Below, piece by piece: positions 8,671 to 15,489 of a DNA stretch of 24,000 nucleotides. The position numbers were made by a program, and so were the translations under genes. The stretch is from the NCBI GenBank assembly GCA_964548555.1, contig CAZJSY010000002.1, positions 1 to 24,000 on the forward strand, given 5' to 3'. Below the pieces are notes generated by a model. That model had not been told where the DNA came from. It saw nothing but the letters and a program-made list of their open reading frames with translations, and did no database searches. Every line of letters begins with the position of its first letter. Position 1 is the first letter of the stretch. Source of the stretch: an uncultured Burkholderiales bacterium (GTDB lineage: Bacteria > Actinomycetota > Acidimicrobiia > IMCC26256 > JAMXLJ01).

Positions 8671-8778
8671 CTACATCGCCCGGATCTTGAGGTAACGCTC
8701 GAGGTCGGACCGCTGCCGGTACGCGACGTAGGCCGCCAACCCCAGCAGTGCGAGCATCATGAGCTTTCCCATCCGCAT
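8671..8778 (-). CDS. 35-aa single-pass membrane micro-protein MRMGKLMMLALLGLAAYVAYRQRSDLERYLKIRAM (not in the ORF track)
   Basis: Hand translation of the reverse complement of 8671..8778. ATG 8778..8776 overlaps the endopeptidase TGA (8780..8778) as TGATG. TAG stop at 8673..8671, 17 nt before the hypC GTG. 32 of 35 codons end in G/C. It has a hydrophobic helix followed by a basic amphipathic tail. It resembles what I recall as the DUF6893 small-protein family of actinobacterial hydrogenase loci (unverified). Confidence 0.6.
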   Translation of the reverse strand: MRMGKLMMLALLGLAAYVAYRQRSDLERYLKIRAM

Positions 8779-9281
8779 CACTCACCGTCCTTGTGTCGGA
8801 CCAGCTGTCTCGTCTCGGCCTCGAGGAGGTCGCGTACGACCGCCACCGCTTCGTCGACGGCCCGTTCCACGGCCGCGCTGAGACCGATGCCCTCGCCCAC
8901 GTCGGCCGGCTCGCATCCCACGACGAGCGTGACCGGTGGGCGCGCCTCGAGCGCGGTGAGGAGCGTGAGCACCGACACCGGTTCGAGCGAATGGCCGTCG
9001 CACATCGGGGGGTTCTGCTCCGCGGCCGCGTCGAGCTCCGCGAAGTCGGGTTGGAACACGCAGACGGTTCCGGGTTCGACGCCGCGGGGCAGCGCGTCGA
9101 CCACGATCAACGCGTCGTAGCCGTCGAGGAGCTGGTACGCAAGGTGGATGCTGCCCGTCCCGACGTCGAGAACCTCGACACCTTCGGGGAGCTGCTCGCG
9201 TGCGAGTCGTCCGACGACCTCGACGCCGAACCCGTCGTCGCCGAGGAAGATGTTGCCGACGCCCGCGACCAGGAGTCTCAC
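8778..9281 (-). CDS. hupD: [NiFe]-hydrogenase maturation endopeptidase, HybD/HupD/HyaD family (167 aa)
   Basis: GTG 9281..9279 gives (M)RLLVAGVGNIFLGDDGFGVEV..., IVVDA and CDGHSL, which match endopeptidase motifs. The GTG overlaps the upstream TGA (9280..9278) as GTGA. The 378-aa track ORF is an Arg-rich upstream extension. Confidence 0.9.
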   Translation of the reverse strand: MRLLVAGVGNIFLGDDGFGVEVVGRLAREQLPEGVEVLDVGTGSIHLAYQLLDGYDALIVVDALPRGVEPGTVCVFQPDFAELDAAAEQNPPMCDGHSLEPVSVLTLLTALEARPPVTLVVGCEPADVGEGIGLSAAVERAVDEAVAVVRDLLEAETRQLVRHKDGE

Positions 9282-10618
9282 AGCGGTTGCACCTCGTCGG
9301 GTGAGAAGTAGAGGAACCGGCCGTGCCACTGCAGGATCTCGGACGCGGGGTCGTCGTCGACCGTGACCGCGAGGTAGTGCCGGTCGTCGACGTCGGCCAG
9401 CACCGCTTCGACCGTCGCGACGCGCCCCTGGAGGAACATGTCCTGCGCGTCGGCGCGTTGCGATCCCGGGTGCAGCCGGACCCGTGATCCGCGGGCGAGC
9501 ACGACCGAACCGACGACCACGGAGTCCGTCTCGGGCGAAACGGTCGTGTCGCTCCCGGGATCCCACCACGGAACCGATGCGTCCGAAGGCTGCGGCGGCG
9601 CGCTGGTCGAGGTGGGCGTGACCGAGCGGATGGCGCCGTGGAGCCGTTCGAGCCACTCGGGCGGCATCGCATCGACCCGGTCGACGACCGCGGCCGCGCG
9701 TGGATCGGTCGCGCGGGCCGCTTCCTTCTCGTCGTCGGTCAGCGCCATCGTGCGCAACGTCAGGATCTCGTCGATCTCGGTGCCGTCGAAGAGCTCGCCG
9801 GCACTCTCCGGCGCGATCTCGGGCCGGTCGTAGAGGATGATCGGAGACGACAGCACGACCTCGCCGCCTTCGCCGTCGTCGACCAGCACGGGATACGTGT
9901 GGAGGTTGGCGCACGCCTGCGCCTCGTCACGAGCCCACTCCGGTGGGTCGAGGAGCGAGATGAAGCGCCCACCGTCCAGCGCGAGCAACACGTGGGTGGA
10001 GACGAGCGCGCGTCGTAAAGCGGTGTCGCGACCGATGGAAGGTTCAACCCGCGTCGCGTTCACCACCCGGATCCCGAGTCGGACGGCACCGAACGGGCCC
10101 GGAGTCCGCTCGGCACGAGCGCGTACGACACCCCTGACGGGCAGCTGCTCGCGCACGATACGGCCCACCTCGTGTCCGGTTCCGTCGGTCACCGGCTCCT
10201 CGTCGCGGCCCGCGGCGATCTCGAAGGGTGTTTCCCGTTCCTGGTCGAAGAGCGCCGCGAGCTCGAACGACACGTCCACCTCACGTGCGACGCCTTCGTC
10301 CCACGTGACGTACTGGTGGCCGTCGACGACGAGCGAGTCGACGGCTGTGAACCCTGACTCGACGAGCTGTTCGACGCGGCGCGCCTGCACCTGCAGGAAG
10401 CGCACACGGACGTTCAGCGTCGCGTCTTCGGCTGCTTCCAGCAGCAGCTCGGTGTACGAGAAGGTCGTCTCTCCGGCGGCCTCCGCGTAGCCCGACGGTG
10501 CGAGCACACCGAACTGCCAGCGCACCTGGTTCTTCTGCGCGGTGCTGCGGTACGGATAGAGCAGGTACCCCTCGAAGAGCACCGCGTCCGCGACCTTCGT
10601 CGCCGCGTCGAACCTCAC
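9278..10618 (-). CDS. Conserved hydrogenase-cluster protein of unknown function (446 aa)
   Basis: GTG 10618..10616 overlaps the upstream TGA (10617..10615) as GTGA. It starts (M)RFDAATKVADAVLFEGYLLYPYRSTAQKNQVRWQFGVL. A Ser/Thr/Pro linker (TPTSTSAPPQPSDAS) precedes an approximately 80-aa C-terminal module (...GSRVRLHPG...GRVATVEAVLADVDDRHYLAVTVDDDPA...GRFLYFSPDEVQPL). No cofactor motif recognised. Confidence 0.8.
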   Translation of the reverse strand: MRFDAATKVADAVLFEGYLLYPYRSTAQKNQVRWQFGVLAPSGYAEAAGETTFSYTELLLEAAEDATLNVRVRFLQVQARRVEQLVESGFTAVDSLVVDGHQYVTWDEGVAREVDVSFELAALFDQERETPFEIAAGRDEEPVTDGTGHEVGRIVREQLPVRGVVRARAERTPGPFGAVRLGIRVVNATRVEPSIGRDTALRRALVSTHVLLALDGGRFISLLDPPEWARDEAQACANLHTYPVLVDDGEGGEVVLSSPIILYDRPEIAPESAGELFDGTEIDEILTLRTMALTDDEKEAARATDPRAAAVVDRVDAMPPEWLERLHGAIRSVTPTSTSAPPQPSDASVPWWDPGSDTTVSPETDSVVVGSVVLARGSRVRLHPGSQRADAQDMFLQGRVATVEAVLADVDDRHYLAVTVDDDPASEILQWHGRFLYFSPDEVQPL

Positions 10619-11268
10619 CGGGTCTCCTCCCCGGCTTCCTTGAGGAGCCGCTCGACCGCGTCGTCCCACGTGGCCATCGCTTCGCGGCCCCGGTAGCGGC
10701 GGAGCGCGTCGATGGTTTCGCGCCGCATCAGGAGCCAGCCCTGGTTCGGGAAGAACGAGTCGATCATCTCGCGCCACACCGCCACGGGGAGCCGGACCCG
10801 CGTCTCGTGGTGCCACGGGATCTGGTGCGCGCTGAAACCGCTGTCGCCCTGCGCGAAGACCGTTCCGGAGAAGAGGAGCACCAGTGGGATCTCGCCGCCT
10901 TCCAGCGAGGCGAAGTACTTACCCCACGCGACCTCGAGGTCGTAGCTGCACGGCACGCTCAGCGTGGTCTCGACGTGGTGCGTGAATCCGGGCACGGTGT
11001 GCGACACGGATGCGAACTGCATCGGGTGCACCGTGTCGCCCCAGTGCTCCGGTACACCGAACAGGTCGTACAACGCGGTCTGCTCGGCCGCGGTGTACCG
11101 GCGCCGGCCCGGTTCGATGCGGATCTGGCAGCGCAGCGCCATCGCGTGGATCCGCTCACCCGTGCTCTCGTTGATCCGCAGACCGAAGGAGAGGGTCGGT
11201 GCGGCGGCGTACCGGTCGCTGCGTACGTCGACGCACTCGAACGACAGCTCGAGCGGCACCACGGTCAT
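10615..11268 (-). CDS. Conserved hydrogenase-cluster protein of unknown function, DUF6084-like (217 aa)
   Basis: ATG 11268..11266 overlaps the upstream TGA (11267..11265) as ATGA. It starts MTVVPLELSFECVDVRSDRYAAAPTLSFGLRI. The family name is from memory only. The 395-aa track ORF is an Arg-rich extension running through the upstream gene. Confidence 0.8.
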   Translation of the reverse strand: MTVVPLELSFECVDVRSDRYAAAPTLSFGLRINESTGERIHAMALRCQIRIEPGRRRYTAAEQTALYDLFGVPEHWGDTVHPMQFASVSHTVPGFTHHVETTLSVPCSYDLEVAWGKYFASLEGGEIPLVLLFSGTVFAQGDSGFSAHQIPWHHETRVRLPVAVWREMIDSFFPNQGWLLMRRETIDALRRYRGREAMATWDDAVERLLKEAGEETR

Positions 11269-11873
11269 GCCCCGCTCCGTTCGCGCAATGCCGCGAAGAA
11301 CCGCCCCATCTCGCCGCGAAGCTCGGAGCCGCCGTCGAACCCCTTCCAGCGCGCGCGCATGAGCCCGACCAGCTCGTAGCACGCGTCGATCGGCACGAGA
11401 TACGACGCGAAGCCGCTTCCCTCGCGGGTCACGAGCACCGCCTCGACATCGGACACGAGGTCGGTGAAGAGCGGGTCGGCGCCCGCGATCTCGTCGCACG
11501 TCTCGGGTCCGAGTGTGCACTCCGTCGCACCGGCCGGGCTCGGATAGAACGCGACGATGCGGTCGAGGACCGAGTTGCGGAAGAAGAACGCGGTCGAGAC
11601 GGGGATCTGTGCGGCGTCCCACTGGGCCGGCCCGATCGGCGACGACGCCTGATACCGGTATCGGTCGGGCACCGCGCGGTACCGGCCGCCTCCGGCTCCC
11701 GACCGTGTGAAGAGCAGCCGGCATGCGGTACACGTGCAGAGCAACCGGCGGGTGTCGGTCTCGACGACGTGGCCATGCTCGTGCGCGATCCGCTCGCCGC
11801 ACAGCTCGCAGCGCTCCTCGCGCTCGCGGGTGGTGCGCACCGGTTGCGCGAACCGCCGCAGCACCCCGGTCAT
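11265..11873 (-). CDS. Conserved hydrogenase-cluster protein with an N-terminal CxxC...CxCxxC motif, DUF5947-like (202 aa)
   Basis: ATG 11873..11871. The N-terminus carries CELCGERIAHEHGHVVETDTRRLLCTCTAC, five Cys plus three His within 30 residues, consistent with a metal-binding knuckle. The family name is from memory only. Confidence 0.8.
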   Translation of the reverse strand: MTGVLRRFAQPVRTTREREERCELCGERIAHEHGHVVETDTRRLLCTCTACRLLFTRSGAGGGRYRAVPDRYRYQASSPIGPAQWDAAQIPVSTAFFFRNSVLDRIVAFYPSPAGATECTLGPETCDEIAGADPLFTDLVSDVEAVLVTREGSGFASYLVPIDACYELVGLMRARWKGFDGGSELRGEMGRFFAALRERSGA

Positions 11874-11892
11874 GGGCGTCCCATCCGCCGCT

Positions 11893-11939
11893 CAGTTGGG
11901 ACGGTTGTCCGTGATATTGACGGGAAAGTGTCCCAACTG
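11893..11939. promoter_or_regulatory. Perfect 10-bp inverted repeat CAGTTGGGAC-N27-GTCCCAACTG with a nested AT-rich hairpin, in the only sizeable intercistronic gap of the operon
   Basis: Read directly. 11893..11902 and 11930..11939 are exact reverse complements. The 27-nt spacer contains CCGT-GATATTG-ACGG. The element lies in the 85-bp gap between the NifU-like stop (11959) and the next ATG (11873). Confidence 0.5.
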
Positions 11940-11958
11940 CCGAAGGGGTGGGGGGTGG

Positions 11959-12465
11959 TCATGCCGACGCTCCGGAGGTGCGCGTCGGGCCGAAGGTGAC
12001 CGGCACCGCGACGGGAGCGGTCTCCACCTCGACGCGGATCACCTCCGGCGCGGCCTCGAGCACCGCGGTCTCGAGCAGCGCGGCGATCGCACCGTTCGAC
12101 GCGCCGCAACCGTTTCCGCGTCCGTCGGTCCGGAACCGCGCGATGCCTTCCCCGTCGATCCCGACGAACTCGACGTCGACGCCGGCACCAGAACGAAGCC
12201 GGTGCACGGTCTCGCGGATCCGCGTGTGCGCGTCGACGGGGTGGATGCCGTGCAGCAGGAGCAACGCGGAGACGAGCTCGTCGCTCGTCAGGCGGACGGC
12301 GTCGTCGCCCAGCAGCTCCACGACACGGGTGAGGCCGGCACCGTAGAGCTCGACGAGCACTGCGACGAGCTCCTCGGCTTCGTCGCGCGCGCCGTCACCG
12401 CGTGCCGCCAACCGGTCGAGCAGCGTTTCGATCCGATCCTCCATCTCGCGCGGGTCCACCGCCAC
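11959..12465 (-). CDS. NifU-like domain protein at the HhyE position, immediately downstream of the large subunit (168 aa)
   Basis: GTG 12465..12463 lies 9 nt after the hhyL stop; an alternative ATG is at 12444. The protein has a helical N-terminal half. The C-terminal half VDVEFVGIDGEGIARFRTDGRGNGCGASNGAIAALLETAVLEAAPEV resembles the NifU C-terminal fold but carries only one Cys. Confidence 0.8.
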   Translation of the reverse strand: MAVDPREMEDRIETLLDRLAARGDGARDEAEELVAVLVELYGAGLTRVVELLGDDAVRLTSDELVSALLLLHGIHPVDAHTRIRETVHRLRSGAGVDVEFVGIDGEGIARFRTDGRGNGCGASNGAIAALLETAVLEAAPEVIRVEVETAPVAVPVTFGPTRTSGASA

Positions 12466-12474
12466 GACGGCCGC

Positions 12475-14274
12475 CTACCGGTTGTACGGGAGCATCGTGG
12501 GTGAGTGCACCTGCTCGAGCACCTTGCCCTTGCCGAGGTACATGTGCACGCCGCACGGCAGGCATGGGTCGAAGCTGCGGACGGCCCGCATCACGTCGAT
12601 GCCCTTGAAGTTCTCGGGCGGGTTCTCCTCGAAGATCGGCGTGTTCTGCACCGCGTCCTCGTACGGTCCCGGCGTGCCGTAGACGTCCCGGACGCTGCCG
12701 TTCCACGGCGTGGGCGGGTACGGGTGATAGTTCGCGATCTTTCCGTCCCGTATCACCATGTGGTGCGACAGCACGCCGCGCACGGCTTCGGTGAATCCGC
12801 AACTGATCGCCTCTTCGGGCACGACGAAGGGCTCCCACGTCTTGGTGTGTCCGGCGCGCACCTCAGAGAGCGCTTTCTCCGCGAAGTGCAGCGCGCACGC
12901 GGCCGAGTATGCCTGGAAGTAGGTGCGGGCGCGGTCGCGTTCGATGGCGTTGCTCCACTTCGGGATCTTCCACTCGAAGTGGGCCTCGGGCTTCGTCGCG
13001 GTGCGCGGCAGGTTGATCTCCACGCTGTTGCCGGTCGCCTTCACGTACCCGATGTCGACGAGTCCCGCGAGGGCCGTGGCCCAGAGCCGAGCGAGGGGGC
13101 CACCCCCGGTGTCGAGCGGCAGGTAGTCCTTCCCGTCGAACCACCGGGGAGACATCACCCAGCTGTACTTGTCGTCGAAGTCCCGCTTCTGCGGCTTGGG
13201 GATCGTGTGCTGGTTCCACGGATGACGGCGATCGACGGGATTCCCGAGCGGGTCGTGCGTGACGAAGCGCTCCTTGTCCTCCCAGTCCTCGTAATAGGAG
13301 CTGCCGAGCAGGATCCGGAGGCCGAGGTTGATGTCGACGAGGTCGGTCGTCACGAGACGTCCGTCGACCACGACACCGGGCGTCACGAACATCTTGCGAC
13401 CCCAGTTCGACATGTTCTCGTACGTGAAGTCGCAGTGCTCCGGGTCGTTGAGGCTGCCCCAGCATCCGAGGAGCACCCGGCGCTGACCGACCTGCTCGTA
13501 ACCGGGGATGGCTTCGTAGAAGAAGTCGAACAGGTCGTCGTGCATCGGTACGACACGCTTCATGAACTCGACGTAGCGCATCAAGCGCGTCAGGTAATCG
13601 GTGAAGACCTGCACCGTCCCCGATGTCCCGACACCGCCCGGATAGAGCGTCGACGGGTGAACGTGGCGACCCTCCATGAGGCAGAACATCTCTCGTGTGC
13701 TGCGACTCACCTGGAGCGCTTCGCGGTAGAACTCACCCTCGATCGGGTTGAGCGATCGCATGATGTCGCCGATCGTGCGATACCCGTGCTCGGCGGCGTG
13801 CGGTGCCTCGGTGCGGTTCGCCTGCTCGAGCACACCGGGGTTGGTCTCGCCGACCATCTTCTCGCAGAAGTCGACCCCGACGAGGTTCTCCTGAAAGATG
13901 TTGTGGTCGAACATGTACTCCGCGGCCTCGCCGAGATTGATGATCCACTCGCCGAGGTGCGGTGGTCGCACTCCGTAGGCCATGTTCTGGTTGTAGACGG
14001 AGCACGTCGCGTGGTTGTCACCGCAGATCCCGCAGATCCGGCTCGTGATGAAATGCGCGTCGCGGGGGTCCTTACCTTTCATGAAGATGCTGTAGCCCCG
14101 GAAGATCGACGACGTGCTGTAGCACTCGACGACCTTCTTCTGCGCGAAGTCGATCTTGGTGTAGATGCCGAGGCTCCCGACGATGCGGGTGATGGGATCC
14201 CACGCCATCTCGACGACGTTGGTGCCGGATTCACCCGGTCCGCTCCCACCTTCACGCCGCTCGGTGATGGTCAT
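12475..14274 (-). CDS. hhyL: [NiFe]-hydrogenase large subunit, group 1h/5 (599 aa)
   Basis: The N-terminal Ni-binding motif is ITSRICGICGDNHA. The C-terminal motif is SFDPCLPCGVH, followed by a 22-aa tail (MYLGKGKVLEQVHSPTMLPYNR) that would be the endopeptidase-cleaved extension. ATG 14274 is preceded by AGAGGAGGGA. These L1/L2 forms are the ones described for group 5/1h enzymes. Confidence 0.97.
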   Translation of the reverse strand: MTITERREGGSGPGESGTNVVEMAWDPITRIVGSLGIYTKIDFAQKKVVECYSTSSIFRGYSIFMKGKDPRDAHFITSRICGICGDNHATCSVYNQNMAYGVRPPHLGEWIINLGEAAEYMFDHNIFQENLVGVDFCEKMVGETNPGVLEQANRTEAPHAAEHGYRTIGDIMRSLNPIEGEFYREALQVSRSTREMFCLMEGRHVHPSTLYPGGVGTSGTVQVFTDYLTRLMRYVEFMKRVVPMHDDLFDFFYEAIPGYEQVGQRRVLLGCWGSLNDPEHCDFTYENMSNWGRKMFVTPGVVVDGRLVTTDLVDINLGLRILLGSSYYEDWEDKERFVTHDPLGNPVDRRHPWNQHTIPKPQKRDFDDKYSWVMSPRWFDGKDYLPLDTGGGPLARLWATALAGLVDIGYVKATGNSVEINLPRTATKPEAHFEWKIPKWSNAIERDRARTYFQAYSAACALHFAEKALSEVRAGHTKTWEPFVVPEEAISCGFTEAVRGVLSHHMVIRDGKIANYHPYPPTPWNGSVRDVYGTPGPYEDAVQNTPIFEENPPENFKGIDVMRAVRSFDPCLPCGVHMYLGKGKVLEQVHSPTMLPYNR

Positions 14275-14328: not shown

Positions 14329-15399
14329 TCACCACTGCGGCTGGTACCCCGTTCGCAGCTCCTGACCCGGCGTGCGCCACTTCGGTTCCTTGTCGACCGT
14401 CTTGGCCGTGATCGACCGCAGCGCCCGGATGAGCGGCCCGTACAGCATCCCGGTGACGCCGGTCGACACCGTGCTGCCGGGTGGCTCGTCCATGAACGGC
14501 ATGAACTTGTCGGGGAAGCCCGGCATCGTGCACGCGATGCAGATGCCGCCGACGTTCGGGCAGCCGCCGACTCCGTTGATCCATCCCCGCTTGGGGACGT
14601 TGCACTTCACCACCGGGCCCCAGCAGCCGAGCTTCACGAGGCACTTCGGTGAGCCGTACTCCACCGCGAAGTCACCTTGCTCGTAGAAGCCGGCCCGGTC
14701 GCAGCCCTCGTGAACCGTCGCGCCGAAGAGCCACGTCGGGCGCAGCGCGGAGTCGAGGGGCGGAGCCGGCGAGGCGCCCGTCACGTGGTACAGCAGATGC
14801 AGGATCGTCTCCGAAAGGTTGTCCGGATGGATCGGGCAGCCCGGCACGTTGACGATCGGCAACCCGGCCTTCGAGCGCCAGTTCCACCCGAGGTAGTCGG
14901 CGACGCCCATCGCGCCTGTCGGGTTCCCGGCCATCGCGTGGATGCCTCCGTATGCCGCGCAGGTGCCGGCGGCGATGATCGCGGTCGCCTTCGGCGCGAG
15001 ACGATCGATCCACTCGCTGGTCGTCATGGGCTGGCCGGTCTCGGGGTTGTTGCCGAAGCCGCTCCAGTAACCCTCGGGCTTGATCCGCTCGTTGGGTATC
15101 GAGCCCTCGAGCACGAGGACGAATGGCTCGAGCTCGCCGCGGTCGGCTTTGAAGAACCATTCGATGAAGGTGTCGGCACCCTGTTCGGGGCCACACTCGA
15201 AATCGATCAGGGGCCAATGGACCGCGATCTTCGGCAGGCCGGGCAGTGCACCGAGCACGATCTCCTCGATGCTCGGTTGCGTTGCCGCGGTGAGCGCCAC
15301 CGAGTCGCCGTCGCAACTCAGGCCCGCGTTGATCCAGAGGACATGGACCGTCATGTCCTGCGGGTCGGGTCTGGCCTGCTGCTCGAGCCGGGTGACCAT
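14329..15399 (-). CDS. hhyS: [NiFe]-hydrogenase small subunit, group 1h/5, no Tat signal (356 aa)
   Basis: VHVLWINAGLSCDGDS, AAGTCAAYGGIHA, NVPGCPIHPD, KLGCWGPVVKCNVP and GGCPNVGGICIACTMPGFPDKF are small-subunit Fe-S ligand regions. The start is chosen as ATG 15399..15397 with GGAGGT 7 nt upstream; alternatives are 15447 and 15354. No RRxF twin-arginine leader is present, as expected for group 1h. Confidence 0.93.
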   Translation of the reverse strand: MVTRLEQQARPDPQDMTVHVLWINAGLSCDGDSVALTAATQPSIEEIVLGALPGLPKIAVHWPLIDFECGPEQGADTFIEWFFKADRGELEPFVLVLEGSIPNERIKPEGYWSGFGNNPETGQPMTTSEWIDRLAPKATAIIAAGTCAAYGGIHAMAGNPTGAMGVADYLGWNWRSKAGLPIVNVPGCPIHPDNLSETILHLLYHVTGASPAPPLDSALRPTWLFGATVHEGCDRAGFYEQGDFAVEYGSPKCLVKLGCWGPVVKCNVPKRGWINGVGGCPNVGGICIACTMPGFPDKFMPFMDEPPGSTVSTGVTGMLYGPLIRALRSITAKTVDKEPKWRTPGQELRTGYQPQW

Positions 15400-15417
15400 G
15401 CGGGCCACCTCCCCCCT

Positions 15418-15440
15418 CCGCCCGGCCTGAAGCCGGGCGG
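15418..15440 (-). promoter_or_regulatory. GC-rich hairpin CCGCCCGGC-CTGAA-GCCGGGCGG abutting the hhyS Shine-Dalgarno sequence
   Basis: Read directly: a perfect 9-bp stem with a 5-nt loop. On the minus-strand transcript, the 3' arm is followed immediately by AGGGGGGAGGTGGCCCGC-ATG. It sits in the 90-nt gap after the SIS-fusion stop (15490). No U-tract follows. Confidence 0.4.
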
Positions 15441-15489
15441 TGCGCACGCCCGTTCTTTCTTCGAATGTGAGAGAGCTGCCGCTGCGCTT

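Follow-up and report, generated by a model that had tools for sequence, protein, structure and literature searches.

The hha genes of a group 1h hydrogenase operon

The 24,000-nucleotide (nt) stretch of DNA analysed here (hereafter the window; contig CAZJSY010000002.1 of assembly GCA_964548555.1, placed in the phylum Actinomycetota by GTDB) comes from a draft genome of 536 contigs which is 91% complete, and carries three overlapping genes, hhaA, hhaB and hhaC, between the structural genes of a [NiFe]-hydrogenase and its maturation endopeptidase gene. The operon lies on the minus strand, as do all features given below, in the order hhyS-hhyL-hhyE-hhaA-hhaB-hhaC-hupD, and the GC content of the window is ~0.64–0.73. 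The small subunit gene hhyS (14329–15447) encodes a protein scoring 543 bits against HofK, and the product of the large subunit gene hhyL (12475–14274) scores 1094.5 bits against HofG in PDB entry 5aa5, whereas all other solved [NiFe] large subunits score ≤152 bits. As HhyL matches HofG far best and HhyS matches HofK, the enzyme belongs to group 1h, which is how the first-pass annotation of this DNA had classed it.

Downstream of hhyL lies hhyE (11959–12465), a NifU-like gene (Pfam NifU, E-value 1.1e-06) in the position of PHG066 in Cupriavidus necator, followed by an 85-nt intergenic gap (11874–11958) which is the sole uncoupled junction of the chain in this genome. The first gene of the trio, hhaA (11265–11873, ATG start), encodes 202 amino acids (aa), belongs to DUF5947 and is the orthologue of C. 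necator PHG067; hhaB (10615–11268, ATG start, 217 aa) belongs to DUF6084 and takes the PHG068 position; hhaC (9278–10618, GTG start) encodes 446 aa and the product matches no family in Pfam or NCBIfam. The maturation endopeptidase gene hupD (8778–9281) completes the operon, with matches to HycI in Pfam (1.9e-18) and to TIGR00072 in NCBIfam (7e-37). Consecutive genes overlap by an ATGA at hhaA/hhaB (11265–11268) and by a GTGA at both hhaB/hhaC (10615–10618) and hhaC/hupD (9278–9281), so that the description of three coupled genes between the structural genes and the endopeptidase, given in the first-pass annotation, is verified in its coordinates and in each overlap; the fixed stoichiometry which it drew from these overlaps may follow from them, but was stated too firmly.

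Spurious long open reading frames (ORFs) are common in high-GC DNA, the window contains 118 ORFs of ≥80 aa, and hhaC and hupD begin at inferred GTG codons, all of which could suggest that some or all of the hha ORFs are chance frames and their overlaps artefacts of start choice. The proteins themselves argue decisively otherwise. HhaA matches DUF5947 (PF19372) with 223.5 bits (E-value 2e-66, model positions 1–176 of 177) and HhaB matches DUF6084 (PF19562) with 294.9 bits (E-value 3.9e-88, model positions 3–212 of 213), in each case against a gathering score of 25 bits; these are exactly the two families that had been named beforehand. Homologues number in the thousands: those of HhaC form at least 8000 clusters at 90% identity, every one annotated as hypothetical, and a DUF6084 profile search over 1.84 billion representatives gave 1921 matches at 50% clustering. 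The GC content at third codon positions of hhaA, hhaB and hhaC is 0.86–0.92 in the proposed frames, and a GGAG-type Shine-Dalgarno sequence lies a few bases 5' of each internal start. With gene order and overlaps also kept across phyla (see below), we count the chance-frame explanation as already refuted.

The trio is almost certainly this genome's hhaA, hhaB and hhaC, the accessory set specific to group 1h [NiFe]-hydrogenases. It had been put forward as an undescribed module, but the set is in fact named, and group 1h loci are reported to encode three highly conserved, 1h-specific proteins of unknown function (PMC5900883). In Thermomicrobium roseum the three genes 3' of hhyLS are named as the conserved hypothetical proteins hhaABC and are induced 5.5-fold in stationary phase (PMC6776052), and in C. 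necator PHG066-069 are ORFs of unknown function adjoining hofKG and the protease PHG070, with PHG066, PHG067 and PHG070 induced along with hypE2 and hypF3 (PMC4377017). An electron-acceptor role has been suggested for PHG067 (Schafer et al. 2013, as cited in PMC6883350), whilst Methylacidiphilum fumariolicum SolV has an active, high-affinity group 1h enzyme and encodes no hha homologues (PMC7174314). No functional assignment for hhaABC was found in the literature, in agreement with the earlier statement that the counterpart hypotheticals are unassigned.

PHG067-PHG069 on plasmid pHG1 of C. necator H16 and MSMEG_2717-2715 of M. smegmatis represent the same set, hypothetical proteins conserved in the operons of group 1h, a group previously numbered 5. 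On pHG1 the order is the same (hofK-hofG-NifU-DUF5947-DUF6084-476-aa hypothetical-protease), with overlapping stops and starts, and a Methylocystis parvus plasmid has a gene order identical to that of pHG1. The window HhaA shares 42% identity over its full length with the protein in the PHG067 position, including the Cys/His motif described below, and the window HhaC shares 40% identity over its full length with that in the PHG069 position (468 columns, E-value 5e-89). The window trio is therefore another ordinary member of a recognised, uncharacterised set, two of whose three families are already Pfam DUFs.

Metal-ligand motif and domain architecture

HhaA carries seven putative metal ligands, C22, C25, H33, H35, C46, C48 and C51, all of which are invariant in 76 aligned sequences, and a further cysteine, C165, which is 95% conserved. 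In the window protein they form the pattern CxxC-x7-HxH-x10-CxCxxC at residues 22–51 (codons at 11721–11810), and the general form CxxC-x7/8-HxH-x10-CxCxxC, which is our own description of the family ligands as opposed to a Pfam-defined motif, was found in 75 of 75 HhaA homologues, PHG067 and Methylocystis included. The motif had been noticed from the sequence as CxxC-x19-CxCxxC plus a His cluster; its residues stand as described, but the spacing does not, the gap between C25 and C46 being 20 residues. The AlphaFold model of HhaA is confident (predicted local distance difference test (pLDDT) 90.8, predicted template modelling score 0.85) and shows an alpha/beta domain preceded by a small beta-hairpin/knuckle region, a fold for which structure comparison found no relative in the PDB. 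The CxxCG and CxxC knuckles may form a rubredoxin-like site; 30 HhaA homologues gave no rubredoxin or ferredoxin match in Pfam at E-values up to 5, and the ferredoxin motif CxxCxxCxxxCP is absent from the sequence.

The neighbouring HhyE is far less constant in its cysteines, with 1–8 Cys and 0–3 CxxC motifs among 73 homologues (approximate counts, as some starts are perhaps mis-set), and the window HhyE and C. necator PHG066 have one Cys each. As the HhaA motif is invariant while the HhyE Cys count varies, HhaA is the constant, presumably metal-binding, element of the block. HypA is a small protein with CxxC and His ligands which acts in [NiFe] maturation, and HhaA resembles the HypA/HybF nickel metallochaperones in its size, CxxC pairs and His ligands. 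Unlike HypA, however, HhaA does not match the HypA/HybF model PF01155 and has no fold relative in the PDB, and we rejected the idea that HhaA substitutes for HypA, the genome having two HypA genes and HypB elsewhere.

Neither HhaB nor HhaC has conserved redox-cofactor ligands in its alignment: HhaB has no invariant Cys or His, and HhaC has one invariant Cys together with many invariant acidic and aromatic residues. The AlphaFold model of HhaC (pLDDT 72.8) divides into an N-terminal module (residues 1–332, 9623–10618), a linker rich in Ser, Thr and Pro (~residues 333–357, 9548–9622) and a C-terminal SH3-like beta-barrel module (residues 358–446 plus stop, 9278–9547). The N-terminal module has a confidently modelled, beta-rich core (~40–245) and two flanks (1–35 and 255–330) which are the most conserved segments of the protein, yet are modelled with low confidence, a combination that hints at folding on a partner. 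The linker is predicted to be disordered (pLDDT < 50 at 321–357) and its length varies across the alignment. In four genomes of one family (f22; G298, G276, G164 and G139) the HhaC match falls into two parts, divided at the linker, and in one of them (L090, G298:C62, 5433–6792) each module has its own gene (348 and 103 aa, one base apart), the 103-aa gene of the C-terminal module overlapping hupD by 8 nt. The model, the variable linker lengths and the split genes thus agree with the first-pass view of HhaC as a two-module protein with an S/T/P linker.

The C-terminal module, modelled with moderate confidence (pLDDT ~63–91), matches PetP, an SH3-fold peripheral subunit of the cyanobacterial cytochrome b6f complex, in Foldseek searches (7r0w_V, probability 1.00, template modelling (TM) score 0.78, root-mean-square deviation 2.4 Å; 2n5u, probability 1.00, TM 0.67; deviations of 2.3–2.4 Å for both PetP matches). 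Both are the same small SH3-like barrel, but they share only 16–19% identity, and a fold this generic gives no sign of common ancestry or function; PetP is moreover a stand-alone subunit of an electron-transfer complex, whereas the HhaC barrel is one module of a larger protein. Foldseek matches of the beta-rich core, to viral gB, fluorescent proteins and lectins, were discarded as low-TM noise.

Searches for more distant relatives of the trio were negative. No chain in the PDB was matched by sequence with any of the three window proteins or with PHG067, Pfam scans of 18–30 homologues per Hha protein gave no recurrent weak match at E-values up to 5, NCBIfam added none, and at the same Pfam threshold neither the trio nor its aligned homologues matched the HyaE, HupH/HyaF (HoxO/HoxQ), rubredoxin or HypC models. 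Profile-profile comparison found the HhaA, HhaB and HhaC families unrelated to one another (probabilities ≤0.3%); a 98-column alignment between HhaA and HhaB looked suggestive, and was rejected as not significant. In none of the three window proteins does any stretch reach the hydrophobicity of a transmembrane segment.

Distribution, gene order and gene fusions

To follow the trio beyond this genome, 301 genomes, sampled evenly from the phylum, were searched separately for HhyL, DUF5947, DUF6084 and HhaC. HhyL with ≥63% identity was present in 36 of the 301 genomes, with fragments in two more, whilst DUF5947 and DUF6084 were each found in 35 and HhaC in 36. Every genome positive for DUF5947 or DUF6084 carries a group 1h HhyL at this identity, and HhaC is likewise limited to group 1h genomes, the single exception being a contig-edge fragment (G280); the ~263 genomes without a group 1h HhyL contain no match to DUF5947, DUF6084 or HhaC. 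A second class of [NiFe] large subunit, 40–44% identical to HhyL over the full length, occurs in more than 12 of the sampled genomes (e.g. G017, G159, G232, G254, G113 and G048), and DUF5947 and DUF6084 are found alongside it only where the group 1h enzyme is present as well; genomes with this subunit as their only near-full-length match are among the ~263. Strict co-occurrence with the group 1h enzyme, which the first-pass annotation had proposed to survey, thus holds in this sample, and the homologues outside hydrogenase loci that would have spoken against a dedicated role are not widespread in it. In one genome hhyL, hhaA, hhaB and hhaC are jointly broken by stops or frameshifts (G225:C9:95462–100687), and the group 1h locus is here decaying as a unit. 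Another genome has an internal TGA in hhyL and a split hhaB (G092:C9).

Gene order was compared in loci retrieved by scanning GTDB species genomes with the HhaC alignment (the best 80 of at least 592 loci, almost all from Actinomycetota), whilst for other phyla plasmid records, protein names and published work were used. The order hhyS-hhyL-hhyE-hhaA-hhaB-hhaC-hupD is kept in nearly all loci with enough flanking sequence (~80), and in two proteobacterial plasmids; hhaC takes this position in 77 loci. At hhyE/hhaA, 71 of the 75 other loci offer a 4-nt overlap, as do 75 of 77 loci for hhaB/hhaC and 64 of 67 for hhaC/hupD. For hhaA/hhaB a 4-nt overlap is available in 35 of 77 loci, and another 22 have one of 8 nt; these are counts of available overlaps, as the start picker chose an overlapping start codon wherever one was present.

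A small number of loci are rearranged. Three (L050, L057 and L092, the last in genome G264) are permuted, with hhaC first, followed by hhyS-hhyL-hhyE-hhaA; hupD directly follows hhaC in L050 and L057, no hupD was found in L092, and hypD and hypE follow hhaA in L057. The HhaA proteins of these three loci are the most divergent recovered (37–39% identity), and retain the full Cys/His motif. When a fourth rearranged locus (L060) is included, hhaA is still with hhyE in four of four, and hhaC still adjoins hupD in L050, L057 and L060. In a further locus (L093, G108:C308, 2226–3824) an HhyE with the motif CHGCPSS runs in one frame, via a ~70-residue Arg/Asp/Gly repeat, into HhaB.

Neighbouring genes of the chain are also found joined in single proteins, most frequently hhaC and hupD, as the DUF6084 profile search and its follow-ups revealed. 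Among the best 120 matches, at least 36 clusters (90% identity) are fusions of a full-length HhaC to a full-length endopeptidase, ~600–680 residues long, with differing linkers; some share as little as 50% identity with the query, and their sources are Acidimicrobiales and Ilumatobacteraceae. In Acidimicrobiales the C-terminal module of HhaC is joined directly to HupD, and in one locus of otherwise standard order (L085) the HhaC-HupD fusion gene overlaps the DUF6084 gene by 4 nt. Fusions of HhaB to HhaC with both parts intact (P0148/P0275) are rarer, HhaA-HhaB was found as a single case (P0138), and in two proteins (P0185 and P0268) the N-terminal domain of HhyE is fused to HhaB (35% identity to the window HhyE, E-value 7e-06).

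Five other candidate HhaB-HhaC fusions (P0198, P0248, P0276, P0277 and P0290) were set aside as products of frameshifts, since their HhaB part is out of frame in its second half. Four of them (P0198, P0248, P0276 and P0277), although unrelated representatives, share the same frame change in hhaB just after LLFSGTVF, and continue in the hhaC frame. These changes at a shared position are most likely assembly or sequencing errors enriched by the 50% clustering.

A proposed maturation role and its alternatives

HhyL ends, after DPCLPCGVH, in a C-terminal tail (window positions 12475–12543) of 21–24 residues, or 28 in one case, across 81 loci, with the consensus M-[YFSN]-x-G-x-G-[KR]-x5-H-[STVM]-P, which is unusually conserved across Actinomycetota and Proteobacteria. 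This tail might serve HupD, HhaC or both as a recognition site.

On present evidence we lean towards HhaABC being soluble, cytoplasmic assembly or maturation factors rather than permanent subunits, a view drawn from the sequences and gene arrangements. In the first-pass annotation neither maturation nor electron transfer was preferred; the maturation half of that proposal has gained from the fusions, and the equal weighting has not stood, as the HhaC-HupD, HhyE-HhaB, HhaA-HhaB and HhaB-HhaC fusions favour maturation over electron transfer. Also on the side of maturation are the coupled position of the trio before hupD, the persistence of hhaC beside hupD and of hhaA beside hhyE in rearranged loci, the restriction to group 1h genomes and the joint decay in G225, the lack of cofactor ligands in HhaB and HhaC and of transmembrane segments, and the induction of PHG066, PHG067 and PHG070 with hyp genes in C. 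necator (PMC4377017). In the proposed mechanism HhyE, HhaA, HhaB, HhaC and HupD would act together as a chain, with HhyE a probable partner of the trio. HhaA would bind either a cluster or up to two metal ions via its invariant Cys5His2 motif, in which two rubredoxin-type knuckles could give a Cys4 site and H33, H35 and C46 a possible second site; HhaB would be a ligand-free adaptor; and HhaC would dock on or recruit HupD, which would remove the conserved 21–24-residue tail of pre-HhyL. The trio would act transiently, flanked in the chain by the NifU-like HhyE and by the processing protease. That it is no stable part of the crystallised enzyme is indicated by the lack of a PDB match for PHG067, the sole group 1h entry matched in our PDB searches (5aa5) having been matched only as its HofK and HofG chains. 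Within this scheme the mutual binding of the proteins, the identity of the HhaA metal, and the maturation step and subunit served are all presumptive. If the proteins are indeed maturation factors, loss of HhaC should affect the HupD-dependent processing of HhyL, a prediction which follows from the fusions.

Enzyme-specific accessory proteins encoded next to a dedicated endopeptidase gene, in the structural operon or directly behind it, are familiar from O2-tolerant group 1d hydrogenases, in the HoxL/O/Q/R/T/V proteins of the C. necator membrane-bound hydrogenase and HyaE/HyaF of Escherichia coli Hyd-1, and the trio resembles them in this respect. One of these, HoxR, is a rubredoxin-type Cys4 protein required for aerobic maturation and a possible analogue of the HhaA CxxCG knuckles. 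The group 1d maturation proteins have, however, no detectable sequence kinship to HhaABC, and group 1h small subunits have no twin-arginine translocation signal peptide to guard.

Several observations weigh against a maturation role. The three permuted loci with hhaC first (L050, L057 and L092) contain no HhaB (DUF6084 gene), and the locus in which HhyE runs into HhaB (L093) has no HhaA gene between the two, on a contig that ends inside hhaB. With these loci and SolV, the trio is divisible and not obligatory in group 1h loci; the SolV enzyme is active without homologues (PMC7174314), so the trio is not universally required for 1h maturation. The genome encodes an ordinary, full Hyp set, with HypC, HypD, HypE and HypF in the window and HypA (in two copies) and HypB elsewhere, and no known maturation step is therefore vacant. 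The fusions belong to a single clade, and one or a few events may lie behind them; fusion to the protease demonstrates a functional link without pointing to a particular step. The invariant Cys5His2 site would, moreover, also suit a redox centre.

This last point leads to the main competing explanation, in which the trio is an electron-transfer or coupling module: HhaA would take electrons from the distal HhyS cluster via an Fe(Cys)4 or Fe-S centre, and HhaB and HhaC would form a scaffold to the membrane or quinone pool, replacing the absent cytochrome b subunit. The seven invariant Cys/His ligands of HhaA, CxxCG-type knuckles included, would fit such a role, as would the published proposal that PHG067 is an electron acceptor (Schafer et al. 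2013, cited in PMC6883350) and the position of the genes within the structural operon, where they are co-induced with hhyLS (PMC6776052). It would also address the membrane association and high affinity of enzymes whose operons lack a cytochrome b, which are otherwise unexplained (PMC7174314, PMC6883350). Yet a single-turnover protease is an odd partner for a permanent scaffold, as would be the case in the HhaC-HupD fusion clusters, and HhaB and HhaC offer neither cofactor ligands nor a segment of transmembrane level. PHG067 matches no chain in the PDB and 5aa5 was matched only as HofK and HofG, the HhaA motif is unlike the ferredoxin CxxCxxC...CP, and neither the ferredoxin nor the rubredoxin families of Pfam match HhaA at E-values up to 5. 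HhaA is absent from L093, and M. fumariolicum oxidises sub-atmospheric H2 without hha genes (PMC7174314). We thus regard an electron-transfer role as unlikely, albeit one to be taken seriously. Still less probable is that the trio protects, repairs or stores the finished enzyme, stabilising or reactivating it during long aerobic dormancy, for example by re-metallating it or mending O2-damaged clusters, with no part in first assembly or electron flow. Group 1h enzymes do operate in long-lived aerobic cells under starvation, the M. fumariolicum enzyme in isolated form inactivates once H2 is exhausted in the presence of O2 traces (PMC7174314), the genes are co-induced in stationary phase (PMC6776052), and the HhaA metal ligands and NifU-like HhyE would be compatible with cluster repair. 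No observation supports it specifically, however, Pfam and NCBIfam scans revealed no known repair domain, and fusion to the endopeptidase points to biogenesis, since the protease acts before the enzyme is finished.

Returning to maturation, a more specific version can be offered tentatively, and we consider it possible but doubtful: HhyE, HhaA, HhaB, HhaC and HupD would constitute an aerobic maturation complex exclusive to the atmospheric-H2 group 1h enzymes, in which HhaA, with its invariant Cys5His2 double site and a fold unlike any solved structure, would be a new kind of metallochaperone, and the SH3-like module of HhaC would hand the unusually conserved HhyL tail (MYxGxGK-x5-H[S/T/V]P) over to the protease.

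Much of the biological sink for atmospheric H2 is due to group 1h hydrogenases, which also sustain dormant soil bacteria, and no gene set other than hhaABC is specific to this class of enzyme. Deciding whether the trio assembles the enzyme or connects it to the membrane would go some way towards explaining how these cytoplasmic, O2-insensitive proteins are put together and deliver their electrons, and is relevant to the heterologous production of air-stable hydrogenases. HhaC is in addition a very abundant soil protein family without a Pfam or NCBIfam model, and the window adds one more copy of this abundant known unknown. Unlike the usual 4-nt overlap, hhyE and hhaA lie 85 nt apart in the window; otherwise nothing essential differs from the pHG1 set. 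The gap is a candidate internal terminator, attenuator or processing site, which might lower accessory relative to structural gene expression.

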